Of a stretch of 64,000 bases of DNA, positions 1,556 to 52,460 are shown piece after piece. The position numbers and the translations under genes are program-made. The stretch lies in the IMG/VR virus record IMGVR_UViG_3300037245_003639; one strand, given 5' to 3'. Source of the DNA: a virus. Under the pieces are notes generated by a model. That model was not told the origin of the DNA. It ran no database searches and was given only the letters and a program-made list of their open reading frames with translations. Positions within the stretch are counted from its first letter, which is position 1. Each line of letters opens with the position of its first letter.

Positions 1556-1558
1556 CCC

Positions 1559-1587: not shown

Positions 1588-1593
1588 ACCGTT

Positions 1594-8189: not shown

Positions 8190-8205
8190 GACCACGGAGG
8201 TTGTT

Positions 8206-11354: not shown

Positions 11355-11380
11355 ACACGTATGACATGGAGGCTTGGCGG

Positions 11381-34180: not shown

Positions 34181-34192
34181 TGTTGCTCCTCC

Positions 34193-35787: not shown

Positions 35788-35788
35788 A

Positions 35789-37245: not shown

Positions 37246-37873
37246 TATCTCCGTGTTCTAAGAACCCCTCATCAATAAGAAAAGCCAAAACATTTGAAAC
37301 CGCGTCGTAGGCGTGCTCTGAATCATATTCCACTTTGATATTAGGGTCCGTTATGTCTGACATGATTTCCTTTACAGCCTTTTTCATTTGAGTTTTAGTG
37401 GCCCTGCCTTTGCCGGTGAGCACCTTCTTCACATGTGAAGGATAGACAAATGAAACCGGCAACTGAAACTTGCCACAGCAGGCCAAAATAACCCCCATAC
37501 AATTAGATACTTGGCCAGTGATAAATCCACCTGAAAAAGAACTGGTTTTTTCAATGATAACTAGATCGGGCTTCTGTTTCTCGAATAACTGTTCAACGAT
37601 TAAAAAAAGAGGCCATAGCATCTTCCAGGGCTGGTCCACTTTGGACATAACAAAAGTTCCTGCCACGGGGATGATCTTTTCAATGGAATCTTCTTTCTCA
37701 TAGACTTCAACGACTGCCCAACCTAGATTCCTGTAGCTGGCGGGATCAAACGAGATCAATTTAGTGAGGGCCATAAGAACCTTCCTATAAAACTTTCTGT
37801 GTATTATACACAGAAATTCAAGGAAGTTCCTATCCGCAAAGGAACTGATCACCAAAAAGCAACTCACAGTCAT
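37229..37873 (-). CDS. RuvC-like Holliday-junction resolvase (RNase H fold)
   Basis: LISFDPASYRNLGWAVV resembles GIDPGSRVTGYGV. Downstream acidic DLVIIEKTSSF. Confidence 0.5.
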   Translation of the reverse strand: MTVSCFLVISSFADRNFLEFLCIIHRKFYRKVLMALTKLISFDPASYRNLGWAVVEVYEKEDSIEKIIPVAGTFVMSKVDQPWKMLWPLFLIVEQLFEKQKPDLVIIEKTSSFSGGFITGQVSNCMGVILACCGKFQLPVSFVYPSHVKKVLTGKGRATKTQMKKAVKEIMSDITDPNIKVEYDSEHAYDAVSNVLAFLIDEGFLEHGDNDGKG

Positions 37874-38018
37874 CGGTGACTGCCAAAAAGTTGCTTAGGG
37901 CTTCTTTGTCATCCACTTCATCAGAAAGCAATATAGACGTGAGCTTGTTTTGGTCAATATCGCCCCGAGGCACTAAAAGCGAACCATCAGGCTGGATAAT
38001 AAACTCAATTTCAGTCAT
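37830..38018 (-). CDS. Small DUF2997-like protein (paralog 1)
   Basis: MTEIEFIIQPDGSLLV; likely start at the internal Met of track ORF 37830..38063. Confidence 0.3.
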   Translation of the reverse strand: MTEIEFIIQPDGSLLVPRGDIDQNKLTSILLSDEVDDKEALSNFLAVTDDCELLFGDQFLCG

Positions 38019-38209
38019 TGGCCGTGACGCAAATGTTGTTCTTGAGTATGCTCTTGCTGCCAATACTCGTGCTTTTTATCCCTCTGTACAATCGTCCCCA
38101 AGGCCCGAGCAAACGCCTCAGAATCCTGAGAGCAGCCCTGACCATGGTAGCCGACCAGATCAATGTCGATGTTACCTTCTTTGTCGATTGTGATTTCAAT
38201 CTCTGGCAT
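38015..38209 (-). CDS. Small DUF2997-like protein (paralog 2)
   Basis: MPEIEITIDKEGNIDIDLVGYHGQGCSQ shares the MxEIE(I/F)xI..G(N/S) pattern with the neighbouring ORF. Confidence 0.3.
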   Translation of the reverse strand: MPEIEITIDKEGNIDIDLVGYHGQGCSQDSEAFARALGTIVQRDKKHEYWQQEHTQEQHLRHGQ

Positions 38210-38239
38210 ACACACCTCCAGGAGCATTATACGAGTTGC

Positions 38240-39454
38240 TCAAACCAAACGTAGGATTTCGTCCGCTTCCTCTGGAGCGTATCCGCCCACAATTAGGGAT
38301 TGACGTTCATTCACTTTGCCGCAGATAAAAAGACAAATCGCTTCAAAGCCGAGTTTAATATTCGCAACATCCAATCGAATCTTAGAGCGCATACGCTCAA
38401 TACATAATAGGGCTGCGTAGATTTTTGACGGAGACCAACCAAAAGCTATTTTGAACGAATCGCTTTTGACCTTATTGTAAATGGCCCCCTTATTATAACG
38501 AGGTTCCCATTTATCTCCCTTGTCTTTATCCTTCTTGAGTTTCTTGATGGGCTCCTGGTGCAGAAGATCTGCATCGGAGTCGCCCATAACTGCATTATTA
38601 AATGCGTTATATGAGATAGTTCCCCTGCAAGATTCCTTAGCATATAGCAGCAACTCAAAATTGTGACGTAAGGCCCCAATGGTTTGTTCAGCTATACCCC
38701 TAAACTCGCTCATCGTGCCCGATGAAGCGTCCTCCAGGAACTCCTGTAAATGACAATAAGCATCATCAAACCGCTGACGATTCAGTTGGTCAATCAACTC
38801 CCAGATGGATTTCTCAAAAACTGGGATACAACAGTCTTTGATATCATCGACAGTGATATCGCCTTCAGGCTTGTAATCAAAGAGACGAGTTAGTTCTGAA
38901 TACAGACTATCGTAATTCAGCCCCTTGACTTCCACCAAAAAGGAGGCTACCCCATTGGACATCTTACGGCCATAGTCAGAAGCCAAGCCTATTGACCACT
39001 GAACCGCATCTTTTAAAGATTTGGCTCTGGCATCATATTTCAAGACCTTTCCTTCTGATTTGATCGTTTTGTAGAATGTACTGGCCGATGCTGGAATGAA
39101 CTTATTGGCGCTGTAGTAGCCCAACGGGGCCTCTATCACGAGCACATTCTTGTTGTTGACATACTTGAGATAGTCAACCATCGCCTTGTAGTCAGGTGGT
39201 AGGCCAAACATGCGAATGATTCTGGGTCTTTCGTCGAAAACATCCGTAGACCGCAATAAGCGCATAACATCCCCAGCGGTGGCCGAATTATGGCTACAAT
39301 CAATTGATTGAATATTGGGTTCGCCAACCTCTTTACGTACACCAGCCACAATCTCATTCCACACTTTCCGGCAGTTGTAGTAGTTACCTCCGCTGGGTGG
39401 ACCTACAAGCCAAAATACTCGGCGGGTAATGCCTTTGGCTTTCTTCTTAGCCAC
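38240..39454 (-). CDS. Clamp-loader delta/delta-prime-like subunit (degenerate P-loop)
   Basis: VFWLVGPPSGGNYY is a degenerate AAA+ Walker A. Lies between dnaN and RuvC in a replication module. Confidence 0.4.
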   Translation of the reverse strand: MAKKKAKGITRRVFWLVGPPSGGNYYNCRKVWNEIVAGVRKEVGEPNIQSIDCSHNSATAGDVMRLLRSTDVFDERPRIIRMFGLPPDYKAMVDYLKYVNNKNVLVIEAPLGYYSANKFIPASASTFYKTIKSEGKVLKYDARAKSLKDAVQWSIGLASDYGRKMSNGVASFLVEVKGLNYDSLYSELTRLFDYKPEGDITVDDIKDCCIPVFEKSIWELIDQLNRQRFDDAYCHLQEFLEDASSGTMSEFRGIAEQTIGALRHNFELLLYAKESCRGTISYNAFNNAVMGDSDADLLHQEPIKKLKKDKDKGDKWEPRYNKGAIYNKVKSDSFKIAFGWSPSKIYAALLCIERMRSKIRLDVANIKLGFEAICLFICGKVNERQSLIVGGYAPEEADEILRLV

Positions 39455-40770
39455 TATTCGTCTTCCTCGTCATCGGCGGCAGCAGCGAAGAAGAAAGAGA
39501 GCCTGGGGTTGTTAGTCCCATCCTTATGGCCGGGCGCTCCCAATACATCTTTCTTACCGTCGTCAGGGTCAACTGGTTCAACGATGATAGTCCGCTCAGG
39601 ATCAATGCAGTAGAAACGAATAATAGGCTTGTCAGATGCCTGGGCTACATCCTTCAGATACTCGTGGGCATAGCAAGATGCATAATCAGATTCACCGTAG
39701 ACCGTGGCATCGCAATCAAAATCAGCCTGGAAACGGGCCTCTTTGACTATGAAATTGGAGCGAGGAGAAAGACCCGCTTTCCCATTCTTCACAACAAAAT
39801 CGCAATGGTGGAAACCACCTTCCTTGTTCCGTTCTTTATCTTCCACAGCACCAATCAGTAACATGCCTTCCTCGAAATCATCCCGCTTGAGATCTATCAC
39901 GGTTTTCGCATCATCGAAGTTGAAAGCATGCTTCTCATACGAGATGTACTGATCGTTAGGAATACCATGTAAAAGAAGTGTCAAGTTGCTTTCCTGCGGT
40001 TTGATATAGCAAGTCTGCTCATTTTTGTATGTCATCTGGACATCTTTGCCTACCTCCGAAGCACAAAGACTGGCGATGATTTGAGCTTGATCACAAGGAA
40101 GGATGAACTTCTTGCCCGCGTCGTCATCGATGTCGGGATTCGCCTGGTCCAGTTGGAACCCCAAGATACCAAAACGAGAGCCGTCCCCGCAAACGAAACG
40201 GGTTTCGTTTTTCAGGAAGTGCAGGCACATCATCATGTAACGAGGCAGATAGTCTCGGCGGGCTACATATTTCCCAGCCGTTGCTATACCTCGCTGAAAC
40301 TCTTCTGATTCAAACAGATAGGTAAAGCCCTTTTGTGGCTTAGCGATATGGAAGTCATGTCCTTCGGAGAAAGTCACCATCTTGGCGAACTTCTTCCCCT
40401 TGGCGTCAGCATCTTTCATATGAAGCGAAGGCGAGGCATCGCCTTCCAGGCTCACGATAATAATATTGTCTTTCGCCGAGCCTCCAATAGACGCTACAAT
40501 CTTTCTGGCAACTGCAACATCAACCGTAGCAGAGCCTTGATCCTCGCACTTCAAATTCTCGTCGCTGTCACTTGTGACTTCCCAGTGTGCATCCAACAAA
40601 CCATTGGAAGACAAGAAATTCACCTTGTCATCATCAACCTTTATGGTAACTCTAAAAGCCTTTTCGTAGTCGGTTTTGATGCCCTTCGTTCCAACCTCAA
40701 CCATCTTGGCAAGAGCTTCAACCAACTGCTCTTTAGTCATAAGGAATTTCACGTTCAGTCTCCAGTCCAA
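39454..40770 (-). CDS. dnaN: DNA polymerase sliding clamp (beta subunit, DnaN-like) with acidic C-terminal tail
   Basis: RYMMMCLHFLKNETRFVCGDGSRFG parallels E. coli DnaN RYYLNGMLFE...VATDGHRLA. MKF..EQL start. Ends AAAADDEEDE. Confidence 0.65.
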   Translation of the reverse strand: MDWRLNVKFLMTKEQLVEALAKMVEVGTKGIKTDYEKAFRVTIKVDDDKVNFLSSNGLLDAHWEVTSDSDENLKCEDQGSATVDVAVARKIVASIGGSAKDNIIIVSLEGDASPSLHMKDADAKGKKFAKMVTFSEGHDFHIAKPQKGFTYLFESEEFQRGIATAGKYVARRDYLPRYMMMCLHFLKNETRFVCGDGSRFGILGFQLDQANPDIDDDAGKKFILPCDQAQIIASLCASEVGKDVQMTYKNEQTCYIKPQESNLTLLLHGIPNDQYISYEKHAFNFDDAKTVIDLKRDDFEEGMLLIGAVEDKERNKEGGFHHCDFVVKNGKAGLSPRSNFIVKEARFQADFDCDATVYGESDYASCYAHEYLKDVAQASDKPIIRFYCIDPERTIIVEPVDPDDGKKDVLGAPGHKDGTNNPRLSFFFAAAADDEEDE

Positions 40771-40826
40771 ATTTCAAGATTCAATCACTTATCATTATAC
40801 AAGTTTGCCGGGCTTGATTACGAAAA

Positions 40827-41492
40827 TTACCAATCCATGCTGTCCTGCATATTTTGTGCTTTTTGTCTGATACGCTGGAGCGAGTTATCGACCGTCTTCT
40901 TCGTGATACGTTTGTCCGTAAAGACTTTCTTCAGGGCGTCTACTATCTCATCGTAATGAAGCTGTTGTATATAGAGTTTGAAGACTTCCTGTTCTAATGA
41001 CGACAACCTGGCCAGCAAGCGAATTTGACGAATTTGATGGGTCTCGTTTTTAGCAACTTGGTCGTCTACATTGGGAGCGTCTTCAGCAAGGATAGAAATC
41101 AGCGAAAGGCTTTCCCCTCCTTCTGATCTGTCTTCGTCCAATGATAAACTGGTATTCAAAACCTTTCGTTTTAGTTGGTTGTTCCCTTTGATAAGTGAGA
41201 ACAGATGTCTTTTAATGCATAAAATCGCAAAGGACTTAAACTTCCCGCGTTCGGGGTTAAAGTCCTCGATAGCTTTGTAACGTAGAGCATAGAGGCATTC
41301 TTGTTCGATCTCATCTGAGTCACATCCTGGTATTCGATATTTGCGACCAAACAGTTTGATATAGTAGTTCAGATACGTTTGCAGAAACTGAAAAGATGAT
41401 TCATTTGCATCCTCACGAACGTTGGTTACCAGAACAATTATCTCTTCTTCGTTGACTTTATTGCCTCTCTCTTTAGGAGAGGGCTGAATCAT
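40827..41492 (-). CDS. Sigma-factor-like protein (sigma-70 region 2 / region 4)
   Basis: YALRYKAIEDFNPERGKFKSFAILCIKRHLFSLIK is region-2-like. C-terminal HTH (YDEIVDALK...VDNSLQRIRQK). Confidence 0.55.
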   Translation of the reverse strand: MIQPSPKERGNKVNEEEIIVLVTNVREDANESSFQFLQTYLNYYIKLFGRKYRIPGCDSDEIEQECLYALRYKAIEDFNPERGKFKSFAILCIKRHLFSLIKGNNQLKRKVLNTSLSLDEDRSEGGESLSLISILAEDAPNVDDQVAKNETHQIRQIRLLARLSSLEQEVFKLYIQQLHYDEIVDALKKVFTDKRITKKTVDNSLQRIRQKAQNMQDSMDW

Positions 41493-41509
41493 ATTTTACT
41501 GTCGTCCTC

Positions 41510-42634
41510 CTAACGCCGGAAAGCAAACACGCTCTCCAAGAACCATTTCTGTAGAGCAATATCCGGTGGGTAATTGAGTTCAAATTCCCACTTTGCATGA
41601 CGCAACTTTCCAATTATATCTATTACGGCAGAAAGTTTATCATGTTCTTTACAATGGGAGAGCTGTTCTTTCAAGCGGCGCTTGCCTTCTTCAGAAACTT
41701 GCAAAAACTCTCCAGCTTTCATGCAGGTCAACCCGACCATAATGCTCCTGAAATGCTCCAGAAGACCCGCATACAACACATCAAAATCTGTGCCTGTGGC
41801 CAACATGCTGTTAATAATCCGAAACCCTTCGGATGCATCAGGTTTACCACCTTTGGTTCCTATGATTTGGTCAATCAAATTATAGTACAGGGTCTCCCCC
41901 ACCTCACCAAACATGGTCTGAGCATCAGCTATCGAAATGCTCTCTTTATCCGCAAAATCGCACAATTTCTCTAAGTTAGTGATGCCGTTACGCATGCTGC
42001 CAGATGACAAACGAGCACACAGGTTCAAAGCAGCAGGTTCTACTTCGACCTTCTCATGCTTCGCTATTCCCGCAAGTCGTTCCGTAATCAACGACCAGTA
42101 AATCTTGCTAAAATCATGCCGCTGACACCTGCTTTGAATAGCAGGCCGCACCTTCTGAATATCCGTTGTACACAAAATAAAACGCACATGAGGTGGTGGT
42201 TCTTCCAGTATTTTTAAAAGAGCGTCATTAGCAGTGGGCGACATTCGGTGGCACTCGTCGATTATGAATATTTTTGTTTTGGCTCCATCGATGGGGTTAT
42301 AAGCCGCATCCGCTTTGAGCTTCCGAATCTCATCCGCAGAGCCCGCAGAGCTTGCGGCATCAATCTCTCGAATGTCCGTGTGATTTCCCGCAAAAATACC
42401 TTTGCAAACAGAGCACTTGCCGCAAGGATGCAACCCCGGGCTATCTGTGCAATTTTCCATTGCAGCCAAAATGCGAGCAACCGTCGTTTTACCAGAACCG
42501 AACTGCCCCACAAATAGATAGCCATGCCGCAGTTTGTTATTCTTGATAGCATTGGACAGCGTTTGTACTACAATCGGCTGACCGACTACGTCTTCAAGAA
42601 CCAGAGGTCTGTATTTCAAAGCCAGATTACGCAT
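41510..42634 (-). CDS. dnaX: DNA polymerase III gamma/tau-like clamp-loader ATPase
   Basis: Walker A GQFGSGKTT. Zinc module CGKCSVCKG. Walker B IIDECHRMS. Sensor motifs. Confidence 0.85.
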   Translation of the reverse strand: MRNLALKYRPLVLEDVVGQPIVVQTLSNAIKNNKLRHGYLFVGQFGSGKTTVARILAAMENCTDSPGLHPCGKCSVCKGIFAGNHTDIREIDAASSAGSADEIRKLKADAAYNPIDGAKTKIFIIDECHRMSPTANDALLKILEEPPPHVRFILCTTDIQKVRPAIQSRCQRHDFSKIYWSLITERLAGIAKHEKVEVEPAALNLCARLSSGSMRNGITNLEKLCDFADKESISIADAQTMFGEVGETLYYNLIDQIIGTKGGKPDASEGFRIINSMLATGTDFDVLYAGLLEHFRSIMVGLTCMKAGEFLQVSEEGKRRLKEQLSHCKEHDKLSAVIDIIGKLRHAKWEFELNYPPDIALQKWFLESVFAFRR

Positions 42635-42642
42635 TGTTCACC

Positions 42643-44394
42643 TTACCATGACGACGGAACGTCAGTTTCTTCAATAACATCAGGATAATCAGATTCCATA
42701 AAATCAACATCAAACTGATGACCATTATACGTTAATACCCAAGTCCTCTGATCCTCTCCTTTTGCATCGGGATGTGACTTGCGTATTAGCTCAATCGGTC
42801 TGCGCCATGTCTTGTAAATATACTTCACGACGTATTCAGCATATGACAAGTCTAGGTTAACAGGGTCAGAACGCGAATGCTCTAAACGGAGCAAACCTGT
42901 TTCATCTACTCGTCTCACTACTATCTCGGGAACTCCATAATTATTGCGTGACCATGCAAAACCACGGATAATATCTTTCAGTTCCTTCGATTGGACGATT
43001 ACAGTTTTATTTTCGATATACTGTTCGTCTATTGCATGAGAACCCAAGTCGTCTTTCTCGGATTCTTTGAATCTCTCTTTGATTTTCTCTTGGATTCCAT
43101 AGTCATCTTTATACTTATCAGTGCTCCCATACATAAAAAGATGCAACTCATGGGCCAAGTCTTCGGTAAGGTAGTTCCTCATGAAAGAGACATCATCCTC
43201 TTCCATCATAACTTCACGAATCTTTTGGGCTCCATCGATGGTGACTGGAATTTTGCGATCCCATTCGTCCTCTCGATACCCTTGTTCGTAATACTCATCC
43301 CACCGCTTCTTGATATCCCGAAATATCCTGAATCCCATGTAATACGGATTCAAACGTGTAATTGAAGAAAAAGAATTGGGATTTTCCCTAACCAACCGAC
43401 TCCACACTTTCACTTTCTTACCTGTTGGACGGCCCATTTGATCAGTTTCTTCAACCTCTTCTTTCAGATGAGCTTTGGCTCCGGGCTGAACAACCTTTTC
43501 GTGCTGTGTGAGAAAGTCCAAATGCTCTTCGTCTGTCATGGGATATTTTATGTCCGTTACTCCGTAATCATTATCGTTCCCAAGAGCATACTGATCCATC
43601 AACTCTTTGTGCCAGTAAGAGGCCCAACCTTCATTCATAATTTTAGTGCGAAACATAGGATAGAAGTAATAAGCTTCTCTCCTTACCATTTCAAAGATCT
43701 TTTGTTGCCAAGGTTCCATGCTCGCATATTCTGACATAAACCATAGCAAATCACGTTCAGGTCTCGGGGGGATATGAATTCCCTCAATAACCTTTTGAAT
43801 GAGAGGGGCTTTATCGTTGATATGAACTATATCTTCATGAAGTTTTACTTCACGCTCTTTATAGACAGCTCGACGAGCAGCATATCTTTTTCGGCGCCTG
43901 CCCTTGAATATATCAATGTGGTGCTCTAAAGCAAGGGCGACATCCAGCCACTCATCTATAACATCGTCCCCATAGTCGTCTCTAAACTGTTCAATGATTA
44001 CAGCGTGGCGCTTAGCCACATTTACCATCTGCGTTTCATCAATTTTCTGAAACATAGAGTTGTTCTTAAAAAAATCGCTATGTGCATAACAGTGGGCTGC
44101 AATAAAAAGATTAGTGGTGTTGGTATTGTTCTTATCCAAAAACGCAAGAGAGGGGTCGTTATCCAGAATCAACTCATAGATTCTGGAGAAGCCCATCTCA
44201 CCTTGAGCCTTTTGGTACTGATATATCCGACCAAAACTCCAATGAGAATAACGAGTCGGAAGACCATAACTGGCTGTCTGCCAAATTACCGGCGCAGGAA
44301 CCTCAAAGAAGTGGACATCAAAAGGATCCAGCTTAGCTGCCAATGCCAGCCGTTCAATTTCAGCGAATCTTTCCTTCAATAGTTCAGTAGACAC
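42643..44394 (-). CDS. spoVR: SpoVR/YcgB family protein
   Basis: GLPTRYSHWSFGRIY...FIAAHCYAHSDFFKNN matches the SpoVR consensus. Confidence 0.85.
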   Translation of the reverse strand: MSTELLKERFAEIERLALAAKLDPFDVHFFEVPAPVIWQTASYGLPTRYSHWSFGRIYQYQKAQGEMGFSRIYELILDNDPSLAFLDKNNTNTTNLFIAAHCYAHSDFFKNNSMFQKIDETQMVNVAKRHAVIIEQFRDDYGDDVIDEWLDVALALEHHIDIFKGRRRKRYAARRAVYKEREVKLHEDIVHINDKAPLIQKVIEGIHIPPRPERDLLWFMSEYASMEPWQQKIFEMVRREAYYFYPMFRTKIMNEGWASYWHKELMDQYALGNDNDYGVTDIKYPMTDEEHLDFLTQHEKVVQPGAKAHLKEEVEETDQMGRPTGKKVKVWSRLVRENPNSFSSITRLNPYYMGFRIFRDIKKRWDEYYEQGYREDEWDRKIPVTIDGAQKIREVMMEEDDVSFMRNYLTEDLAHELHLFMYGSTDKYKDDYGIQEKIKERFKESEKDDLGSHAIDEQYIENKTVIVQSKELKDIIRGFAWSRNNYGVPEIVVRRVDETGLLRLEHSRSDPVNLDLSYAEYVVKYIYKTWRRPIELIRKSHPDAKGEDQRTWVLTYNGHQFDVDFMESDYPDVIEETDVPSSW

Positions 44395-44403
44395 AGCAAA
44401 TCC

Positions 44404-45576
44404 TTATGAGTGTTCCAAGCTCCGACGATGCGAATTCTGTAAGAAAGTCTGCAAAGCTTTCAGAATGTCGGAAGTCTCTTCAATCACAGAAACAATTACT
44501 CCGTCCTCTACCTCTGCCAACTCTCTGAAATGAGTAAGCAAACGGCTATCAGACTCACGCCAAGAATCAATGTTGATTTCTGCGTAAGCAAAAAGATTAC
44601 CCCCCAAAGTCATGATGTTTTTAACTAACTTCATGCACTTGGGTTCATCTCCAAAAGTATCTCCGTCAGATGAATGAAAACAGTAGATATTCCAACGATG
44701 ACCGGGATAGTTATGCCTGATTATGTCATGACACATCTCGTAAGCAGCCGAGACCCGAGTACCACCACTATCAGATATGGAGAAGAAATCTTTTTCAGTC
44801 AATTCACGGGCGTAGAAATCATGGGCAATGAATTTAACCTCCACCCTTTCGTATTTACGCTTCAGAAACTGAACGACCCAAAAGTAAAAAGCCTTCACTG
44901 CATAAATCTTGTCTTCCCACATGGACGCCGAGCGGTCCATCATCAGAAAGATTACAGCATTACTGTGTTTCTCTTCCGAAATATCCCAAGTACGATAGAC
45001 CATATCGTCTTTGGTATAGGGAATCTTCCCCGTTTTCCGAAGTGCATTCTTACGACGAATATGAGACAGAATGGTGCGCTTCTTGTCTATACAGGATTCT
45101 ACGCCAGATCCTTTACGACGATCTGTATACTCAAGAACATTGCTGACGATTTCGTTCTTCTTGGTATCGTCTAAATCGGGAAGCTCTAGCTCCGAGATCA
45201 TCATATCAGTCAGCTCATCGACTGTATATTCGGCCTCAAACAGCTCACCACCGTCTGCATCACCAGCCCGAGGACCAGGTTTTTCCCCTGGCTGAGGACG
45301 ATAGAGAACCTCATCATCATCTAGCTCATCATAGTTATCACGACCAACTATGTCGGTTCGGTCCTTATTGTGAATAAACCGAAACTGATCGAGGTATTTG
45401 AGACGAATCTTGATTTTCTTATTACCCTCAGATGTAATGATATCTTGCTGAGAGATAATGTCTTTCAATTGCTTTCGAACTGCTTCATCGACACGCTTAT
45501 TATGTTTTTCAGCATCCCTACTTCCCCTGCGCAAAATATCGTAGGGGAAATCTTGTTCTATAATTGTAGAACCCAT
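44404..45576 (-). CDS. yeaH: YeaH/YhbH family protein (DUF444, vWA-like)
   Basis: VIFLMMDRSASMWEDK...VEVKFIAHD...FFSISDSGGTRVSAAYEMC...WNIYCFHSSDGD is collinear with E. coli YeaH (MFCLMDVSGSM...VEVVYIRHH...GGTIVSSAL...WNIYAAQASDGD). Confidence 0.85.
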   Translation of the reverse strand: MGSTIIEQDFPYDILRRGSRDAEKHNKRVDEAVRKQLKDIISQQDIITSEGNKKIKIRLKYLDQFRFIHNKDRTDIVGRDNYDELDDDEVLYRPQPGEKPGPRAGDADGGELFEAEYTVDELTDMMISELELPDLDDTKKNEIVSNVLEYTDRRKGSGVESCIDKKRTILSHIRRKNALRKTGKIPYTKDDMVYRTWDISEEKHSNAVIFLMMDRSASMWEDKIYAVKAFYFWVVQFLKRKYERVEVKFIAHDFYARELTEKDFFSISDSGGTRVSAAYEMCHDIIRHNYPGHRWNIYCFHSSDGDTFGDEPKCMKLVKNIMTLGGNLFAYAEINIDSWRESDSRLLTHFRELAEVEDGVIVSVIEETSDILKALQTFLQNSHRRSLEHS

Positions 45577-45584
45577 AATTCGCC

Positions 45585-47648
45585 TTACTTATCGAACAGG
45601 TGAGCAGTAGCATACTTCAGCACTTCATTCGCAGAAGCAGCAGTATAACCTTGTTGATCAACCATTCGATCAATTACGTCGTTTAAACGACGCAGACCTT
45701 CTGGATCGGGATTGCGAGTAGAGACAGTCATGCGAATTGTTCCTTGCCTCTCTTCGAACAGTTGTTTCTGGATGGCTTCACGCAATTGGGCGTGTTGTGT
45801 ATAGTCTACCTTTTTGCCTTTGTGAGCAGCGATTCCGAAGAAGTGTAGAATCTCATGACGGAAATCATCGACTCCACTCTTGCTTACTTCTAGGTGGCCC
45901 TCGATGCCTTCCATGAGCTTCTCGTCAAGTTCGATTTCTTTATCGGTGATTGGATCTCGTTGTTTCTCATCTGAGAGAGACATCTCAATCTGCGTCAGAT
46001 AGTTATCACAGAGATTCTTGGCTTCATCTTCAAACGATAGGAAGAAAGCTTTCTGAATGTCGTTTCTTAGCAAATCATTCCACTCATTCCGACTTGCGTC
46101 AATGAATTGTTCGAAACGGGCCTTCTCTTCTTTGCTAAAGGAATCCCTGTGCTGAACGCCACTTAGGAGTTGACGCAGCACATCCAAAGCCGTGATATAA
46201 TCTCTACCATCTTCAGCCGCATTAGCAATGGAAGCGTTGATCTGGTCGATCACGAATCGAGGAGAGATACCAAACATACCTTCCCTGGGAGCATCCTTAT
46301 ACATATCATGGACACATGAAGGCTTATGGCCTTTAACGTGCTGCCCGTCATACAACTTCATCTTTGTCACGAGCGTCAGATCACTGTCCTTCGGAGGCTC
46401 TAAACGAGTTAAAGTAGCGAACATGGCTGATGCTTCTAAAGTATGCGGAGCGATATGAATCGCTTTTGTTTCGCCTGCCTTGACTGCCTTGACTGCCTTG
46501 ACTGCTTTGACTGACCGTTTGCCTGCCTTGACCGACTGTTTGCCTGCCTTGACTGACCGTTTGCCCACCTGAACCGACATCCCGTGGGCATCGTCTCCGC
46601 TTTTGATGCTCAAATCGCTGTCACGCAGAAGCTTCTCGTAAATCTTGACTTCGTTTTTTATGCCGAGGTTGTATGGCACCCGAATAATTACCATACGGTC
46701 ATGATAGGCCTCGTACTTTCGCTCGGCCATGAAGTTTTTGAACTCTTCCTCGTTGGTATGCATAATAATGAAAGTGTCGATTGAGATAAGACCAAATCTT
46801 GGAGCTTTGATCATCTTCTCTTGTGTAGCCGTGAGAAGAACTCTCAAGAAACGTTCGTCAGCCTTGAGTCCTTCAATGAATTCCATGATACCCCGGTTAG
46901 CGACTTCAAGCTCACCATTCAAATTGTAAGCCCGAGGGTCTCCCTCGTTGCCCACTTCCTGAATACGGGCGTAGTCAATACCACCGACTAACTCGCTTTG
47001 ATCCTGACTTTTTGGATCTTGTGGGAGCCATGTGCCAATTCCAATCCGCCGAGATTCGGAAATAAAGACTTGCTCAATGGGATATTCTAGGAACTTGCCC
47101 TTGAATTCATGCTCAAGTCGCCACGCCGTATGGGGGCTCAGTTGGCCTTCGATAGAGATGCCGTATCGCTTCTTGAAATCTGCTCGCAAATCATCTGGAA
47201 TGAGCAGAAACGGACTTTCATGCATCTCGCTGTCCTTAAGAGCGAAAAGAGCACCTTCCGTCTCTTTGGTAAATGCCTCCAGCCCTCGTTTGATACGGAT
47301 CACGAGATCGCTTTTACCAGAGGAAGGAGGCCCGTACAACAGCAACATACGACGAGCCGTCTCGGTCTTTCTGGCAGCAGCATGAACATAAGACATGATT
47401 TGGTCAATAGATGACTCAATACCGTACAATGAGTCCTCAAAAAACTTGTACTGCGTCCGAGCACGACCAAAATAATCGTGTGTGTCTGTCCCCTTAGCCG
47501 TAATCATGCTTTCAATACGCTGATGAGCCAAATGCCCGATACCAGGATACTTGTCAGTCTCAAACAAACGCAGAAAATCTTTGAAGGAGCCTTCCCAGCG
47601 CGAGATTGAGCGCTGCTCAGCAGCTTCAAGTTTCTCAATGAAGTTCAT
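45585..47648 (-). CDS. prkA: PrkA/YeaG AAA-type serine protein kinase
   Basis: LLLYGPPSSGKSDLV P-loop and PrkA C-terminal domain. Contains an in-frame K/V/A-rich tandem repeat insert. Confidence 0.9.
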   Translation of the reverse strand: MNFIEKLEAAEQRSISRWEGSFKDFLRLFETDKYPGIGHLAHQRIESMITAKGTDTHDYFGRARTQYKFFEDSLYGIESSIDQIMSYVHAAARKTETARRMLLLYGPPSSGKSDLVIRIKRGLEAFTKETEGALFALKDSEMHESPFLLIPDDLRADFKKRYGISIEGQLSPHTAWRLEHEFKGKFLEYPIEQVFISESRRIGIGTWLPQDPKSQDQSELVGGIDYARIQEVGNEGDPRAYNLNGELEVANRGIMEFIEGLKADERFLRVLLTATQEKMIKAPRFGLISIDTFIIMHTNEEEFKNFMAERKYEAYHDRMVIIRVPYNLGIKNEVKIYEKLLRDSDLSIKSGDDAHGMSVQVGKRSVKAGKQSVKAGKRSVKAVKAVKAVKAGETKAIHIAPHTLEASAMFATLTRLEPPKDSDLTLVTKMKLYDGQHVKGHKPSCVHDMYKDAPREGMFGISPRFVIDQINASIANAAEDGRDYITALDVLRQLLSGVQHRDSFSKEEKARFEQFIDASRNEWNDLLRNDIQKAFFLSFEDEAKNLCDNYLTQIEMSLSDEKQRDPITDKEIELDEKLMEGIEGHLEVSKSGVDDFRHEILHFFGIAAHKGKKVDYTQHAQLREAIQKQLFEERQGTIRMTVSTRNPDPEGLRRLNDVIDRMVDQQGYTAASANEVLKYATAHLFDK
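46474..46566. repeat. In-frame tandem repeat (9-nt gccttgact x4 plus 21-nt units) inside prkA
   Basis: Encodes SVKAGKQSVKAGKRSVKAVKAVKAVKAG between the PrkA domains. Confidence 0.7.
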
Positions 47649-47657
47649 AATAACTCC

Positions 47658-48509
47658 TCAGAACCCAAGGATTTCACTCAAAACCGGTTTAATAGCTTCA
47701 TTCTGCTCTTCAATAGTCATCTCAGCATTGTTAAGTATGAAACAACGCTCTCTGTTCCAATCAAAATCGTCGAGAGCAGACTCACTCGAATGTACATCAT
47801 TCAAACCAAAAGGGCTTCGTGTCAAGCGAATTACAAAACCTTTTGACTCTGTTAAGACAGTTTCAACTTCGTCAGGAAAACGGTTATCAGTTATGACTGA
47901 AAATGGCTTGCCTATTTTCTTGATACGGCGGATAGTGGCTTTTGCCCAGACATTACCGAACGTCTGTCGGACTAGATCAGTTCCAAAAACCTGCATGATA
48001 TCACGACCCGTCATTGGCCCATCCATGTAACAGGGGTAGGATCGCTGTAATTTATTGGGCAGTTCCATTCCTTTAGCGACAGCAACCTGGGAAAGACGCA
48101 TATTGTAAAACTCATCCATCAACTCGTCCTGGGTCTTGCCTTGCGCTACCAACTTCCGGGCTAAGTCATCAGCAAACTTCCATGCAATGAATCGAGGAAC
48201 ATCATCCCATTCATATTGAGTGGGAGCATTTTTCTCTTCCTCGGTCCCGTAGCAAGCCTCATAGGGCAATCCCAGAACATCTATACAAAAGTCTTTCAGG
48301 GCATCTGCGAAAGAGCACTCGAAAGTCAAAAGTTCGTCGGCTTTCTCTTGATGTTGCTCTAATGATATATACCCAGCATCTCTGCCCTGAGTTAAGTTCG
48401 ACAACTGAAAGGAGGCTTGTTGCTCAGCATAATATTGCTTGATGAACTGGCCTAATGTGTTTTTACCAGCTTGTTTACGACCAGACATGGCAATGATTAT
48501 TTGATCCAT
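47658..48509 (-). CDS. Deoxynucleoside monophosphate kinase (T4 gp1-like P-loop kinase)
   Basis: IIIAMSGRKQAGKNT parallels T4 dNMP kinase LIFLSGVKRSGKDT. Confidence 0.55.
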   Translation of the reverse strand: MDQIIIAMSGRKQAGKNTLGQFIKQYYAEQQASFQLSNLTQGRDAGYISLEQHQEKADELLTFECSFADALKDFCIDVLGLPYEACYGTEEEKNAPTQYEWDDVPRFIAWKFADDLARKLVAQGKTQDELMDEFYNMRLSQVAVAKGMELPNKLQRSYPCYMDGPMTGRDIMQVFGTDLVRQTFGNVWAKATIRRIKKIGKPFSVITDNRFPDEVETVLTESKGFVIRLTRSPFGLNDVHSSESALDDFDWNRERCFILNNAEMTIEEQNEAIKPVLSEILGF

Positions 48510-48904
48510 TACGAACCTGGCAACTCCCTGACAGCTACTTGGGCCTTTCCTGCAAGAGCGAAATACTTCGTGTCATTAACCACTTCGCCCTTCTTGTAGG
48601 TGGGTTCGCCCAAATCCTCTTTCTTCTTGGAAGGCGGGCCATTCTTGGGGTATTCCATATACCATTCTTTGCCATCCAACACACCTAAGAACACCCCCTT
48701 TTTGGTCATCATAAAGACCTCTGAAGCATCCAATTTCTCTGCTGCGGCAAGTGCGTTATTGCAATTTCTCTCGGTGATATAGTCCACCGCAGCCTTCATC
48801 GCCGTTTGCTGCGTTTCAAAACGAGTGAGAGCGCGATCGTAATACCTGACTGGCGCCCAATCTATTCCTATGTCATCCTTTTCAACTACTTGGTACTTAG
48901 CCAT
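48509..48904 (-). CDS. Hypothetical protein
   Basis: 131-aa ORF. Confidence 0.4.
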   Translation of the reverse strand: MAKYQVVEKDDIGIDWAPVRYYDRALTRFETQQTAMKAAVDYITERNCNNALAAAEKLDASEVFMMTKKGVFLGVLDGKEWYMEYPKNGPPSKKKEDLGEPTYKKGEVVNDTKYFALAGKAQVAVRELPGS

Positions 48905-48959
48905 TAATCTTTCCTTATTATTTCCTCGAATATCGTTCCACTATTAATCACTTCTAGTG

Positions 48960-49418
48960 TTACTCATCAACGCGAGGGTTCTCGACGAAAGCAACATCGT
49001 CGTTCAGCAGGTGGGGCAATTTCCCACGCATCTGCCAGTCGGGTCCGAAGGTACGGACCATTAGATTCTGGTCTCGATAATCAAGTGGCCCAACCTTGCC
49101 ACTGTTAGCTTCATCCTCTGGAATGCGTAGCAAAGCCGAGAAGATCAAAGCCAACTTAGCTTCATCTGACCGACTCTCCCACTCGCCTTGATGAAACATG
49201 ATAAAGTATCGCTTCGAGTTCGTGAAGCTCATTGGCTCTGGTTCACCCGTCATATCATAAGGCTTTGCTTTTTTGTCGGGCTTATCTTTATTGGACTCAT
49301 AAGCCATAATCCAGCCAGCGTTGATATGGGCGAACTTTTCAGGATACTTTGCAACCAGTTTCTCAACCATCTCACCATAGTCTTCAATTACAGTCCACTG
49401 AGGTTTCACTTGCGGCAT
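48960..49418 (-). CDS. Hypothetical protein
   Basis: 152-aa ORF. Confidence 0.4.
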   Translation of the reverse strand: MPQVKPQWTVIEDYGEMVEKLVAKYPEKFAHINAGWIMAYESNKDKPDKKAKPYDMTGEPEPMSFTNSKRYFIMFHQGEWESRSDEAKLALIFSALLRIPEDEANSGKVGPLDYRDQNLMVRTFGPDWQMRGKLPHLLNDDVAFVENPRVDE

Positions 49419-49443
49419 TTTTCATTCTCCTTGTGCAAACTCA

Positions 49444-50241
49444 TTATACTTCGTTGCCTTGGGCCAAATCCAATAACAACCAATCTTTGGCATTATATGA
49501 GGTCCGACCATTGGCTATATTGTCCAATCGTGCAATAAGCTCATCGACTGTCCCGAACACGTTATTATGACCAACCAGCCACATCATCCACCCTGAACAA
49601 GTTTCCTTGCCCCCTTCCCAAACCATGTAAACCGGCTTACGTTGTTGACGAGCTACCACTATCTCATGGATTGTGCCATAAGTAGGAATTCGCATACTCT
49701 GCAATGCTTCGAGAAGGGCTTGAGCTACATGGGCTGTATTATGAATGCCCTTCAAAATGGTTGATGCGTCATTAGGATGTTTCTCTTGGAGCCCATTTAG
49801 AATGCCGATGCCGTAATCAATAATATCCACAGACGGAGCGTATTTATCTCCTACCATAGGCATATTGACAAGAACTATATCAGACTTGTCTACCAGTCGC
49901 AAATCAACATGAGCGATCTGGCTTACCGTCTCGGTAAGTTCTTTCCACTCATGTTTCTCACGATGAGAATGCATGATTTTTGATTCATCATTAAGGTTAA
50001 AGGGAGTGCCTGGAGGTAAGGGCTTCTTGCAAGGATTGAGGATTTGACTTTTGTCCAAACCTATACCCTGGAGCTTTTCTGACCAATCATCCCGCCAGGA
50101 TGCTCCACCTTCGCGGTCGAAATCTATTGGCCCCGACAGATAGACATGAAAGTGATCCCAACCGAAGCAGTTCTTCACGAGCATTGGTTCTTCAGGCATT
50201 ATCATCTCCCGCATCTGACAGGAACACTTGTTGTTCAACAT
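49444..50241 (-). CDS. Nucleoside 2-deoxyribosyltransferase / DNPH1-like protein
   Basis: VYLSGPIDFD (YLAGP-like) and GTIHEIVVARQQRKPVYMV (G(T/S)xxExGxA...KPV). Confidence 0.4.
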   Translation of the reverse strand: MLNNKCSCQMREMIMPEEPMLVKNCFGWDHFHVYLSGPIDFDREGGASWRDDWSEKLQGIGLDKSQILNPCKKPLPPGTPFNLNDESKIMHSHREKHEWKELTETVSQIAHVDLRLVDKSDIVLVNMPMVGDKYAPSVDIIDYGIGILNGLQEKHPNDASTILKGIHNTAHVAQALLEALQSMRIPTYGTIHEIVVARQQRKPVYMVWEGGKETCSGWMMWLVGHNNVFGTVDELIARLDNIANGRTSYNAKDWLLLDLAQGNEV

Positions 50242-50500
50242 GCTCGTAGTCTTTGCCGCTCATGTTGTATTCAAAGGAAGCAGAAGATTCCCAAACGGCT
50301 GTGGTATCTGCTTCCACTGGCCCTTGAGAATCTTCCGCTGTTATACTGCCAAGTTTGAATGCTCTTTCTCCGTCCACGAAAAAAGCACACCATTTACTTT
50401 GATTTTGGTGGCTTAGCATGCGAGCTTTGATTAGCAAAGGCAACAACGTGTCCGCTGCTTCGCGAGTGCATTCAATTGTGATAGTTACTAGATCCATCAT
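50192..50500 (-). CDS. Hypothetical protein
   Basis: 102-aa ORF; 50-nt overlap with the neighbour. Confidence 0.3.
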   Translation of the reverse strand: MMDLVTITIECTREAADTLLPLLIKARMLSHQNQSKWCAFFVDGERAFKLGSITAEDSQGPVEADTTAVWESSASFEYNMSGKDYEHVEQQVFLSDAGDDNA

Positions 50501-50715
50501 TCCATCAGTGTGTCAATGGCTTCACTTACTAAGCTGTGCAATTCGGTTCTAACAAGATTCAAACTGCCCTTGTAAAAACGCAAGGGAACTTCAATTATTT
50601 GCTCTCCGACTTGTACACTTGCTGAAGTTGATTTATCGGCCTGAGGCACTGCCACCAAAGCAATACCGACTATTGGACTACGCTCTCCATCTAAAGCTTT
50701 AACTTCTATACTCAT
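50497..50715 (-). CDS. Hypothetical protein
   Basis: 72-aa ORF; ATGA-type coupling. Confidence 0.35.
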   Translation of the reverse strand: MSIEVKALDGERSPIVGIALVAVPQADKSTSASVQVGEQIIEVPLRFYKGSLNLVRTELHSLVSEAIDTLME

Positions 50716-51245
50716 TGTGTAACTCCCATGTTGATAAACCTCGGTTTATCGTCACTCAGAACGACATCTTTACCGCCGCCTGAGATTTCGTCGAGAATGC
50801 GATCATAATCGTCATTGGGCGTCAACCATTGAGCCCGCAGAACTCCAGGATCTTCATTGACCCATTCTGTTAGCAACTGTAGTTCTACAGCATAGTCCGC
50901 TTCAACATAAGCGAAATCGATGCTACTCCCGCTAAAGAACTCAGCGCGATGGTCATAGACATTGACAACCATCAAGTCATGTAGAAACAAAGTAGATGAT
51001 GCCCGAACCTCCAGATTGCCCTTAAAAAGCAACCCAGTCGCCAAGGACTGAATTACCAAAGTGGTTTCGTCGTGGACTTTGTGCTTAAAAATACGCCATC
51101 CGTGGATCTCTTCAAAGAGCAGACGTTGACCAGAAGGTTTGCGAAGTATCTTGAAACCATGAACCCCTTTCTGTCGGGCGTTCACGTTTCTATGCTTCCT
51201 TTGTATATACTCGACGATTTCGTCAAGAGTAGTACATCGCTTCAT
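50712..51245 (-). CDS. Hypothetical protein
   Basis: 177-aa ORF; TATAAT 5 nt upstream of the ATG. Confidence 0.4.
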   Translation of the reverse strand: MKRCTTLDEIVEYIQRKHRNVNARQKGVHGFKILRKPSGQRLLFEEIHGWRIFKHKVHDETTLVIQSLATGLLFKGNLEVRASSTLFLHDLMVVNVYDHRAEFFSGSSIDFAYVEADYAVELQLLTEWVNEDPGVLRAQWLTPNDDYDRILDEISGGGKDVVLSDDKPRFINMGVTQ

Positions 51246-51396
51246 ATCTAATTATACAGCTTCCATCCCCATAGCTGCGAAACTTAGTAATTCTTTTGGT
51301 GGGTTTATAAGACGTGTTACCAGCGATGCCACTTGCCATCTTTATCGGTATAAGGCATCGGCCTGGCAGGCACCCAGCGCCCATTGGGTAATTGAG

Positions 51397-51765
51397 TCAT
51401 AGTAGGTAATTACAATCCCTAATCATGTCCTTGAAAGTTCCCTTGGTCACTTTCATGCATCTCCGATTCGGAGTGAAATCCGCATTTTTGATCATTTCGG
51501 GCTCAAATTCGATGTCTGGCTCTGGAATCTTATTCACCACGACTTTGTTCGGACCCCATTCTTCCAGCACTTTGCCAGTTTGGTCGCATTTAAGGGTATA
51601 TTTCTCAGGCAAATTATACAAAGCCGAGATGGCAGCCATTGCTCCCTGAGCAAACCCTTTCTGCATAAATCCAAATCCTGTGAAAGGTTTGCCATCTCTA
51701 TAGATAGTGTAAGTTTTCTTACTTGCCATCTTGGGCATCCTTGTGGCTAATATGTTCGTCTTCAT
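51397..51765 (-). CDS. Hypothetical protein
   Basis: 122-aa ORF. Confidence 0.4.
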   Translation of the reverse strand: MKTNILATRMPKMASKKTYTIYRDGKPFTGFGFMQKGFAQGAMAAISALYNLPEKYTLKCDQTGKVLEEWGPNKVVVNKIPEPDIEFEPEMIKNADFTPNRRCMKVTKGTFKDMIRDCNYLL

Positions 51766-52024
51766 GATAACCCACTATCTCTGCTATTGTCTTGATGAGC
51801 GCGAGAGCATTTTCCGATACCCACTCAGTTTGCCAAATGCTTTCACTACAACTAATTTGGTTGTCTTCAATGAACTTTTTGCAGAGTTTGAGAAGTTCAT
51901 CTTTGTCTACTGTTTGTTTGGCAAAATACTCTTCCACCCGTCTGATTTTCTTGTAGCAGCTCGTGCAGACCGAGATCCCATCACAAAATTGTTGAATTTC
52001 AGCATCTGTCATGGCGCACACCAA
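51719..52024 (-). CDS. Hypothetical Cys-rich protein
   Basis: CDGISVCTSCYKK; 101 aa. Confidence 0.35.
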   Translation of the reverse strand: MVCAMTDAEIQQFCDGISVCTSCYKKIRRVEEYFAKQTVDKDELLKLCKKFIEDNQISCSESIWQTEWVSENALALIKTIAEIVGYHEDEHISHKDAQDGK

Positions 52025-52151
52025 GTAGTAACGGCCTCTTTAGCTATGCAAGTCAGCCCTGAAACAGAAATCCATATAATAAACAGTGTGCCAAGCGTAG
52101 TCATTATTGGGTCTTCTTTGAAGTTATTAACCCACCATTGCCATAGTTCTC

Positions 52152-52460
52152 TCATTTTATTACCCTAGTTCGCACTACGCTGACACCACGAAGTGCAGTA
52201 GATAGCTTTTTCCTGCCAATAACATAGAAGGACGTGCGATCACCTTCGATATCATCAATGACTTTACCAAATTCTGAGCCGCCGGCGAATGTGATTATTT
52301 CATCATATGTCCGAACTTCACCGAGAAATACCATATCATCCGATAATTCGTTCAGATACCATAATACGTCTGTCCAACTATCGAATGTATAATGATGTCC
52401 ATTCCAATCAAATTCGTAGGTATGCACCCCATCGACCGGTAACAGTTTATCTATGATCAT
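52152..52460 (-). CDS. Hypothetical protein
   Basis: 102-aa ORF. Confidence 0.35.
   Translation of the reverse strand: MIIDKLLPVDGVHTYEFDWNGHHYTFDSWTDVLWYLNELSDDMVFLGEVRTYDEIITFAGGSEFGKVIDDIEGDRTSFYVIGRKKLSTALRGVSVVRTRVIK

Follow-up and report, generated by a model that had tools for sequence, protein, structure and literature searches.

The 64,000-nucleotide stretch of IMG/VR virus record IMGVR_UViG_3300037245_003639 (the whole of which is called the window below) encodes, within positions 42,643 to 47,648, a PrkA/YeaG-family AAA+ ATPase, a YeaH/YhbH (DUF444) protein with a vWA domain (von Willebrand factor type A), and a SpoVR/YcgB-family protein. This is the triad of the bacterial and archaeal prkA-yhbH-spoVR operon, in its canonical order PrkA>YeaH>SpoVR. 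The families, their common minus strand and their order had been recognised in an earlier reading of the letters alone (the sequence-only reading). The open reading frames (ORFs) fall exactly where it had put them, their Pfam matches have E-values of 1e-67 to 1e-99 (Table 1), and the peptides that it quoted are all found in the translations: LLLYGPPSSGKS for PrkA, MDRSASMWEDK...WNIYCFHSSDGD for YeaH and LPTRYSHWSFGR...AAHCYAHSDFFKNN for SpoVR. Its description of the three as strong matches holds for the families and fails for orthologues, since identity to the enterobacterial proteins is low (29.6% to YeaG, 25% to YeaH and 27% to YcgB, the last with an E-value of 2e-41 for the Escherichia coli protein).

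The dnaX, SpoVR, YeaH, PrkA and deoxynucleoside monophosphate (dNMP) kinase genes follow each other at intervals of 8, 9, 8 and 9 nucleotides, the YeaH gene with its full metal ion-dependent adhesion site (MIDAS) motif thus beginning 8 nucleotides downstream of PrkA, and coding density reaches 96% across positions 37229-50241. The location between dnaX and a dNMP kinase, in a replication and nucleotide-metabolism arm, is as the sequence-only reading proposed, both flanking genes being matched by Pfam profiles at 8-9 nucleotides from the triad. A Shine-Dalgarno sequence (GAGGAG) precedes the prkA ATG, and promoter-like or terminator-like sites show no excess over shuffled sequence. The codon usage of the triad correlates with that of the rest of the arm (r 0.84-0.87), and its GC content (0.42-0.47) is typical of the genome. 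Judged by profile matches and motifs, the three genes are members of the assigned families, with intact nucleotide-binding, MIDAS and histidine motifs.

The PrkA protein contains a Walker A motif (GPPSSGKS, aligned to GPVGSAKS of PDB 9xip), the lysine of which is the counterpart of the Bacillus subtilis K108 class residue (PMC9512850), together with an acidic motif (NRGIMEFIE), a sensor-1-like motif (MHTNE) and the family motif QDQSELVG. PF06798 covers residues 427-679 with its full-length profile. The AlphaFold model of residues 395-687 (mean local confidence score, pLDDT, 88) is all-alpha and lacks a beta-rich N-lobe; because of this architecture, neither the bilobal fold of Hanks-type kinases nor a Lon-type C-terminal Ser-Lys protease domain is recognised in PrkA. 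By fold comparison the AAA+ lid appears to resemble those of the Mg-chelatase subunit BchI, the MoxR-type protein CbbQ, MCM and dynein. The modelled fold favours a chelatase/MoxR-like AAA+ motor over the kinase or Lon label for the C-terminal domain, and the nearest structural class would be the one that works with vWA/MIDAS partners, as YeaH is. The linker that joins the AAA+ domain to the C-terminal domain is extended by 27 Lys/Val/Ala-rich residues through an in-frame tandem repeat that encodes (GKRSVKA)x3 and (VKA)x3. In the alignment, a short insert occurs at this point only in the closest relatives, none of them with the repeat, which is unique to the window genotype. The repeat is identical in contig L042 of the Logan assemblies (numbered labels of this kind denote the comparison contigs used alongside the window), and this contig was rejected as an independent relative, being 100% identical to positions 33933-52321 of the window.

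The MIDAS of YeaH is complete (D214-R-S216-A-S218 ... G-G-T273 ... G-D306). Residues D214, S216, S218, T273 and D304/D306 are invariant in the alignment of the clade described below, and the motif is kept in the homologues from Thermus and Ralstonia phages, Enterobacter and contig L019. SpoVR is about 75 aa longer than its bacterial homologues, an insert at about residues 305-345 included, and its match to SpoVR_C (PF24755) scores 20.7 bits, under the cut-off of 27.6 bits. Among 96 sequences, H51, W52, H101, H105, E255, G256, H262 and N349-P-Y are invariant or nearly so. H101 and H105 stand four residues apart on one helix and E255 on a later helix, a gluzincin-like arrangement.

Table 1. Positions of the triad genes, of the repeat in prkA, of intein insertion points found in relatives (numbered on the window proteins) and of neighbouring genes
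Feature	Position	Strand	Details
PrkA/YeaG-family AAA+ ATPase	45585-47648	minus	687 aa; Pfam PF08298 AAA_PrkA 2.4e-99, PF06798 PrkA_C 1.5e-67
YeaH/YhbH (DUF444) vWA protein	44404-45576	minus	390 aa; PF04285 1.4e-78; phrog_19072 3.8e-83
SpoVR/YcgB-family protein	42643-44394	minus	583 aa; PF04293 5.7e-95
In-frame tandem repeat within prkA	46475-46578		21-nt and 9-nt units; Tandem Repeats Finder (TRF)
PrkA intein site	K213/S214		LPQDPK/SQDQSELVG, 14 alleles
PrkA intein site	K262/A263		directly past acidic motif
PrkA intein site	H297/T298		H-T-N motif
YeaH intein site	A217/S218		within DRSA/S of MIDAS
SpoVR intein site	H101/C102		first histidine motif
SpoVR intein site	A258/S259		NEGWA/SYWH
dNMP kinase	47658-48509	minus	upstream neighbour of triad; PF21448 7.3e-10, C-terminal part only
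dnaX-type clamp-loader subunit	41510-42634	minus	downstream neighbour of triad; PF13177 1.1e-42
Small sigma-70-like protein	40827-41492	minus	Sigma70_r2 2.7e-05, r4_2 1.1e-04, both weak
Beta-clamp-like processivity factor	39454-40770	minus	phrog_947 1.4e-04, weak; same packed replication block
Putative phage metallopeptidase (PhageMetallopep)	48960-49418	minus	PF18894 4.8e-08; block member upstream of dNMP kinase

Searching with PrkA gave about 83 protein clusters with identities of 52-87% (798-1314 bits) and then an abrupt drop to ordinary bacterial PrkA proteins of 634 aa at about 45% identity and about 640 bits. SpoVR behaves alike, with a clade of about 575-aa proteins at 54-100% identity against bacterial homologues of about 500 aa at about 40%, and the YeaH matches listed all lie at 49-91% identity. 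The same contig sizes recur in the three lists, and members of the close PrkA group are found on contigs with recorded lengths of up to 580 kb. Six large contigs that we opened (327, 389, 402, 498, 522 and 557 kb) all keep one gene order, topoisomerase I...dNMP kinase-PrkA-(small ORF)-DUF444-SpoVR-dnaX-sigma-like...beta-clamp, which is also that of the window, across sequences only 53-63% identical. The dNMP kinase holds its position in all six and in contig L045 (JGI 3300035158), the closest relative. The PhageMetallopep gene is identifiable upstream of it in four of the six (L006, L007, L016 and L017) and at the same place in L042 and L045. The sigma-like protein recurs at its position in L015-L017 (tblastn, 58-66% identity), and DNA_pol3_beta matches occupy the place of the beta-clamp in L015 and L017. 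Local variation includes a SAICAR synthase gene between SpoVR and dnaX in two of the six and the small ORF between PrkA and YeaH. The latter was considered as a fourth component and rejected as lying outside the system, because it is non-homologous among genomes and missing from the window.

In a neighbour-joining tree of PrkA (633 columns; built without bootstrap, with thin bacterial sampling and with a 21-contig IMG/VR group left out), the 66 intein-free sequences of the clade form a monophyletic group, to which the 37 nearest bacterial sequences are sister, so that the phylogenetic check proposed in the sequence-only reading sets the phage PrkA apart from bacteria. Compared with L045 (84-88% amino acid identity, the closest relative with available DNA), the triad genes show proportions of nonsynonymous differences (pN) of 0.076-0.087 and of synonymous differences (pS) of 0.76-0.84; because the synonymous sites are saturated, only pN and a bound are given here, not dN/dS. 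Topoisomerase I, with a pN of 0.074, is equally constrained, and the dNMP kinase, with 0.19, less so. The low pN values indicate that the triad is under strong purifying selection. The marks of a recently gained auxiliary metabolic gene (AMG), or moron, namely patchy occurrence, likeness to the host and atypical composition, are not found here: the position is fixed in all clade contigs examined, and identity to any bacterial homologue is at most 47%. From gene order, identity and constraint, the triad is a vertically inherited core block, fixed between dNMP kinase and clamp loader in a huge-phage lineage.

One member of the clade is classed as viral in IMG/VR, UViG_3300005253_002116, and a scan with the clade-wide YeaH alignment found only this one. 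In that contig (L037/L004, 5076-5321), similarity to SpoVR ends after residue 88 with no dnaX following: either its SpoVR gene is cut short or the contig itself has a rearrangement or chimeric join there. Another member, the 557 kb contig L006 (JGI 3300041085; NCBI MHA2279489.1), was deposited within a metagenome-assembled genome (MAG) labelled "Promethearchaeota archaeon", and the Loki's Castle marine-sediment metagenome (LCGC14) is the source of further clade proteins. The label of L006 probably arose when a huge phage was wrongly binned with an Asgard archaeon, since the sigma, dnaX and clamp genes of the contig are of bacterial type.

That the window belongs to a jumbo phage, as the sequence-only reading supposed, is the most likely assignment. 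The check that it had proposed against a bacterial chromosome, a search for rRNA, gave zero matches to rRNA or to any other Rfam family in the window; the composition of the window is uniform, the gene order is that of the 327-557 kb contigs, and the clade has its IMG/VR member. The arm carries topoisomerase I, ThyX, RuvC, a beta-clamp-like protein, a T4-like nucleotide-metabolism set and many unmatched ORFs. PhageMetallopep, HNH endonucleases and inteins are phage-type content of the window and its relatives, and all six large contigs hold HNH endonucleases or inteins beside many small unannotated ORFs. Virion hallmarks were sought in the window (PHROGs on 40 ORFs, and Pfam), the relatives being read over 10 kb on either side of the triad. 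It counts against a phage origin that the search of the 64 kb yielded no gene for a capsid, terminase, portal or tail sheath. The window does contain a beta-helix tailspike-like ORF and a collagen-repeat ORF; the "tail fibre" PHROG matches of a 962-aa ORF were discounted as virion evidence, being located in its collagen repeats. Because virion and packaging genes were not found in the window, the viral identity of the clade is strong but indirect, and the decisive evidence is comparative: the score gap around the PrkA clade and the gene order common to the large contigs. On these grounds the element is very probably a huge phage and not a host chromosome, with some 5-10% doubt left. A pattern-based scan of GTDB species genomes, which reaches close relatives only, found none. 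Megablast of the 5 kb triad region against deposited phages gave no match, and tblastn with topoisomerase I, dnaX and NadE gave none above 40% identity; by these searches, the GenBank phage collection contains no member of the lineage.

Inteins interrupt the triad proteins of many relatives. Among the alleles listed, 18 PrkA, at least 22 SpoVR and at least two YeaH proteins contain inteins that are 215-467 aa long and in many cases bear LAGLIDADG domains, and their insertion points coincide with conserved motifs (Table 1). Inteins are known to survive where important genes are most constrained. Their positions here fit the selection data and point to both SpoVR motifs as functional. In L045 (13172-16060), SpoVR is split into ORFs of 133 and 773 aa lying 165 nucleotides apart. 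The first stops 32 residues into an intein at H101/C, and the second comprises the rest of that intein, with its LAGLIDADG domain, and the C-extein; this reflects either a natural split of the intein or a frameshift/pseudogene. For a bacterial SpoVR-like protein, an intein has been recorded before (bioRxiv 10.1101/2025.01.02.630785).

The triad recurs in other phages. A tblastn search with PrkA against deposited phages gave 17 records, and annotation, Pfam and local tblastn together identify the complete triad in four further phage groups, which answers in the affirmative whether it travels together in phage genomes, as the sequence-only reading had asked. The cultured Thermus phages (phiYS40 genes 56-59; TMA, phiLo, MN1 and Lalka8) possess all three families, like the window. 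Their triads differ from it in that PrkA is only about 30% identical and forms a separate clade in the PrkA tree, and in that SpoVR is shorter (445 aa) with an H-V-x-G-H motif; the genomes measure 69-178 kb. In phiYS40, phiLo, MN1 and Lalka8 the full triad has the order YeaH-SpoVR-PrkA. The phiYS40 genome, deposited in 2006 with the annotations SpoVR, serine kinase and "conserved bacterial protein", has a 616-aa ORF inserted between SpoVR and PrkA and a dNMP kinase directly after PrkA, and in MN1 a dCTP deaminase gene lies just upstream of the triad.

The Ralstonia jumbo phage RsoM2USA (ORF30-29-28) and the metagenomic huge-phage genomes LR745206 (634 kb) and LR756504 (636 kb) have the complete PrkA-YeaH-SpoVR order seen in the window but, unlike it, triads of the YeaG/YcgB (gammaproteobacterial) type. 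The RsoM2USA PrkA is 54-56% identical to those of LR745206 and LR756504, 54-59% if Enterobacter YeaG is included, and about 27% identical to that of the window. LR756502 (642 kb), of the same type, has PrkA and YeaH, and SpoVR was not found in the stretch examined. LR756511 (595 kb) has a complete triad of divergent type. A search with the SpoVR alignment further yielded 22 IMG/VR loci on contigs of 35-442 kb. In 21 of them PrkA>YeaH>SpoVR lie on one strand, several with intein-sized expansions, the remaining locus being cut off by the contig end; the PrkA of this 21-contig group is about 40% identical to the window's. In its 442 kb contig L019, the triad is flanked on one side by a UvsW-like helicase, a loader and DnaB, and on the other by a SLOG protein, a sigma-70 factor, the large subunit of ribonucleotide reductase (RNR) and PhoH.

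The Thermus, RsoM2USA-type and LR756511 groups stand in separate places of the PrkA tree, which argues for several independent captures by phages. At least four other phage groups have acquired the triad independently, and in most of those with readable flanks its neighbours are replication or nucleotide-metabolism genes. The yeaG-yeaH genes (1-3308) of the Enterobacter phage LAU1 (MN688132.1, a 30.8 kb lambdoid record deposited as a complete phage genome) were rejected as phage cargo and taken for host flank, because they open the record and SpoVR is missing.

The sequence-only reading knew of no description of the triad as a viral module, and this holds in part. The genes had already been deposited and partly annotated in the Thermus phages and RsoM2USA, and each of the three proteins has a PHROGs family, labelled "unknown function". 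In the RsoM2USA paper ORF28 and ORF30 appear under unrelated functional headings, with ORF29 not among the annotated ORFs (PMC8504454), and in a marine virome study spoVR heads the viral "sporulation" AMGs by abundance (PMC8940887). In the literature search we found no paper treating the three genes together as a phage module. What appears to be new is the complete triad as a conserved, syntenic and strongly selected core block of a huge-phage lineage, its repeated capture by large phages mostly into replication/nucleotide-metabolism neighbourhoods, the intein-marked functional motifs, and the model-based fold evidence against the kinase and Lon labels for the PrkA C-terminal domain.

Among the conserved bacterial and archaeal gene clusters of unknown biochemistry, the triad ranks with the most widespread. 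Bacillus requires it for sporulation, and its function has been argued over for some 30 years, as kinase, protease or neither. A phosphoproteome study of a yeaG mutant has reportedly been made. The three genes show their highest mutual co-fitness with each other in six bacteria, with nitrogen- and carbon-source phenotypes (bioRxiv 10.1101/072470). In Rhizobium etli they form an operon, and no gene of this species is induced by ppGpp more strongly than the first of the three (PMC3188799), and the cluster occurs in all haloarchaea examined (PMC3102087). The activity of PrkA is disputed. The B. subtilis protein was described as an ATP-dependent protease that hydrolyses casein slowly and has no kinase activity (PMC9512850), and the Bacillus anthracis protein showed no kinase and negligible protease activity and is reported to have a pore-loop aromatic residue (PMC13001217). 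Autophosphorylation of E. coli YeaG and phosphorylation of AceA are cited in the former study (PMC9512850).

The phage triad shares with the bacterial and archaeal operon its Pfam families, gene order and intact Walker A, MIDAS and SpoVR histidine motifs, at about 40-47% identity to the nearest bacterial homologues and 25-30% to the E. coli and Enterobacter proteins. It differs from it in the longer SpoVR, the repeat-expanded PrkA linker, the inteins of its close relatives and its place inside a phage replication block, without the starvation-type regulatory context of the bacterial operon. Systems in which an AAA+ motor works with a vWA/MIDAS partner include Mg-chelatase (BchI/BchD/BchH), CbbQ/CbbO, NorQ/NorD and RavA/ViaA. 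At the sequence level the triad is no member of these chelatase/MoxR systems: Pfam gives PrkA families of its own, and SpoVR is unrelated to BchH.

We propose that the phage triad acts as it may in bacteria, where the genes are co-fit and co-transcribed, that is, as one ATP-driven machine. PrkA would be the AAA+ motor, YeaH the vWA/MIDAS adaptor, as BchD, CbbO, NorD and ViaA are for their motors, and SpoVR the third, effector component, probably binding a metal. The task of such a machine would be to remodel particular target proteins, to activate them or to process them. Its transcription probably runs together with that of the replication genes, and through it the phage would impose the output of a host starvation module controlled by ppGpp, NtrC and RpoS, free of host regulation; a cell short of nutrients would thereby remain able to sustain a long replication cycle. 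For the whole of this, a core triad of the phage together with one ATP-driven machine imposing a starvation output, we estimate a probability of about 0.5. Our confidence is high in the part that concerns families, phage clades, purifying selection, composition, inteins and repeated uptake. The mechanism and role, drawn by analogy with the bacterial systems, are more tentative, their chances being somewhat below even.

Several points weigh against the proposal, besides the missing virion genes. Timing, complex formation, targets and benefit of the phage copies are all matters that we infer. The fixed position in the replication module fits a phage-internal role equally well. The replication context is not universal, for Lalka8 has its triad between head genes and the terminase. 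In SpoVR, position 102 is never the Glu that an HExxH motif calls for (Cys in 80, Val in 12, Ala in 3 and a gap in 1 of the 96 sequences), and the enterobacterial, YcgB-type proteins have an H-x4-H spacing. Zincin metallopeptidases, the FtsH protease domain included, have a catalytic Glu, unlike SpoVR, and neither Foldseek nor profiles support a relationship: Foldseek against PDB, hhalign against E. coli PepN, relaxed Pfam thresholds and a literature search were all negative for a zincin link. A non-canonical, probably metal-binding zincin fold for SpoVR, suggested by its residue pattern, is a lead only, its chances close to balanced.

The position in the replication module suggests another reading, unlikely in our view, in which the triad serves the replication and nucleotide apparatus of the phage and not host stress physiology, by maturing or reactivating a metalloenzyme (RNR, ThyX or a deaminase) or by remodelling the replisome in the manner of CbbQO or NorQD. 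The invariant place between dNMP kinase and dnaX in the clade speaks for it, as do the neighbours in other lineages (dNMP kinase in phiYS40, dCTP deaminase in MN1, DnaB, RNR and PhoH in L019), the chelatase/MoxR-like lid of PrkA and the intact vWA/MIDAS partner. Bacterial triads, however, are not linked to replication genes, and their mutants are affected in the use of nitrogen and carbon sources and in stress; Lalka8 departs from the pattern, and no client enzyme consistently adjoins the triad across lineages. We consider rather unlikely a more specific version of the machine, chelatase/MoxR-like and in three parts, in which the motor and the MIDAS adaptor load or switch a metal site in a cryptic zincin-fold SpoVR, as a core early function of several large-phage lineages needed in starved, slow-growing hosts. 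In that case the biochemical function of this near-universal stress operon would be settled by the phage copies, together with the motifs that inteins mark and the genetically tractable phages of Thermus and Ralstonia. Improbable, by comparison with our proposal, is a split ATP-dependent metalloprotease, with PrkA as unfoldase, SpoVR as zincin-fold peptidase and YeaH as adaptor, degrading host proteins for amino acids or for the removal of regulators. The invariance of H101, H105 and E255, the inteins aimed at exactly those motifs, the slow ATP-dependent casein hydrolysis by B. subtilis PrkA preparations (PMC9512850) and the pore-loop residue of the B. anthracis protein (PMC13001217) are what one would expect of it. 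Yet the general-base Glu is replaced throughout, the YcgB-type spacing does not fit, Foldseek and hhalign lend no support, and the protease activity of purified B. anthracis PrkA is negligible (PMC13001217).

Kinase signalling, with phage PrkA as a Ser/Thr kinase of host enzymes such as isocitrate lyase, redirecting carbon, and with YeaH and SpoVR as modulators, would agree with the historical annotation of the family as serine kinase and with the YeaG and AceA phosphorylation cited above. It is very improbable given that the C-terminal model is all-alpha without a beta-rich N-lobe, that two groups saw no kinase activity for Bacillus PrkA (PMC9512850, PMC13001217), and that no clear nucleotide site is seen besides the AAA+ Walker A. 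As for a role in conflict, by superinfection exclusion or counter-defence resembling that of NTPase-vWA modules, its chances are slim. AAA+/vWA pairs do occur in biological-conflict systems, the genomes are rich in mobile elements, and the slot between PrkA and YeaH in relatives is filled by variable small ORFs; but no PADLOC model matched PrkA, YeaH or SpoVR at E<=0.01, the genes are slow-evolving core genes and not diversifying, and the bacterial phenotypes are metabolic. The least probable reading, already largely refuted, is that the triad is host content or a mis-assembly, or a recently captured "sporulation AMG" passenger without a fixed role. Cell-like neighbours (topoisomerase I, dnaX, beta-clamp, sigma factors, NadE and phosphoribosyl pyrophosphate (PRPP) synthase), the lack of a virion hallmark in the window, the Promethearchaeota label of one related contig and the host flank in the deposited LAU1 match all lean towards it. 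They are outweighed by the zero Rfam matches, the large score gap to every bacterial homologue, the synteny across 53-63% identical contigs, the ameliorated composition, the strong purifying selection, the presence of PhageMetallopep, HNH endonucleases and inteins throughout, the viral IMG/VR member and the absence of any close relative in the GTDB scan.

The phage copies suggest that the function of the triad is portable and useful outside the host regulatory circuit and outside sporulation, and that the three genes are selected as a unit. The inteins flag residues that matter, namely those of the Walker-type motifs, the MIDAS, and H101/H105 and NEGWA of SpoVR, and the modelled fold points toward an AAA+/vWA remodelling machine. 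For huge phages of nutrient-poor habitats, the triad would represent a new class of core module for host takeover or replication support, and viral spoVR could no longer be read naively as a "sporulation AMG". The cultured carriers phiYS40, phiLo, MN1, Lalka and RsoM2USA make its function directly testable.

The window shows further features of its own. Gene orientation changes at about 27.7 kb from mostly plus on the left to minus on the right; GC skew is persistently negative from about 28 kb, and GC content drops from about 0.50-0.54 to about 0.44. A second sigma-70-like gene at 25214-26095 (plus strand) has a strong match (phrog_351, 1.6e-49), the one beside the triad being small and divergent. 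A tRNA-Ile(aat) of 89 nucleotides called by ARAGORN at 15358-15446 (plus strand) is probably a false positive, as no Rfam match supports it. Two neighbouring ORFs at 22841-24711 (minus strand) have weak radical-SAM PHROG matches (3.7e-09 and 7.7e-04). On the plus strand, 2229-5317 and 11366-12577 hold an NAD-salvage set of NadE-like (phrog_36784, 1.6e-104), PRPP synthase and NAMPT-like genes; the nearest phage NadE matches include LR756511 (595 kb) and Atu_ph07 (490 kb). At 61627-62873 (minus strand) a ThiF gene (E1-like, 1.4e-22), kept at the same position in relatives, lies beside a JAB/MPN gene (weak, 1.8e-04), a ubiquitin-like conjugation/deconjugation pair. The dCMP deaminase at 58107-59054 (minus strand) bears an N-terminal Clp_N repeat domain (8.5e-40). 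This unusual fusion is also found in L045 (1-224), and more distant clade members have a plain deaminase. Finally, a 378-aa ORF at 8161-9297 (plus strand) has a split periplasmic-binding domain (SBP_bac_3, 6.2e-21; Lig_chan-Glu_bd, 1.9e-07) around a pore (Ion_trans_2/Lig_chan, residues ~169-275), the architecture of a GluR0-type ligand-gated (glutamate-receptor-like) channel, and directly upstream of it (7424-8098, plus strand) lies a gene for a PspA/IM30-family protein (1.2e-10), a family associated with membrane stress and remodelling.

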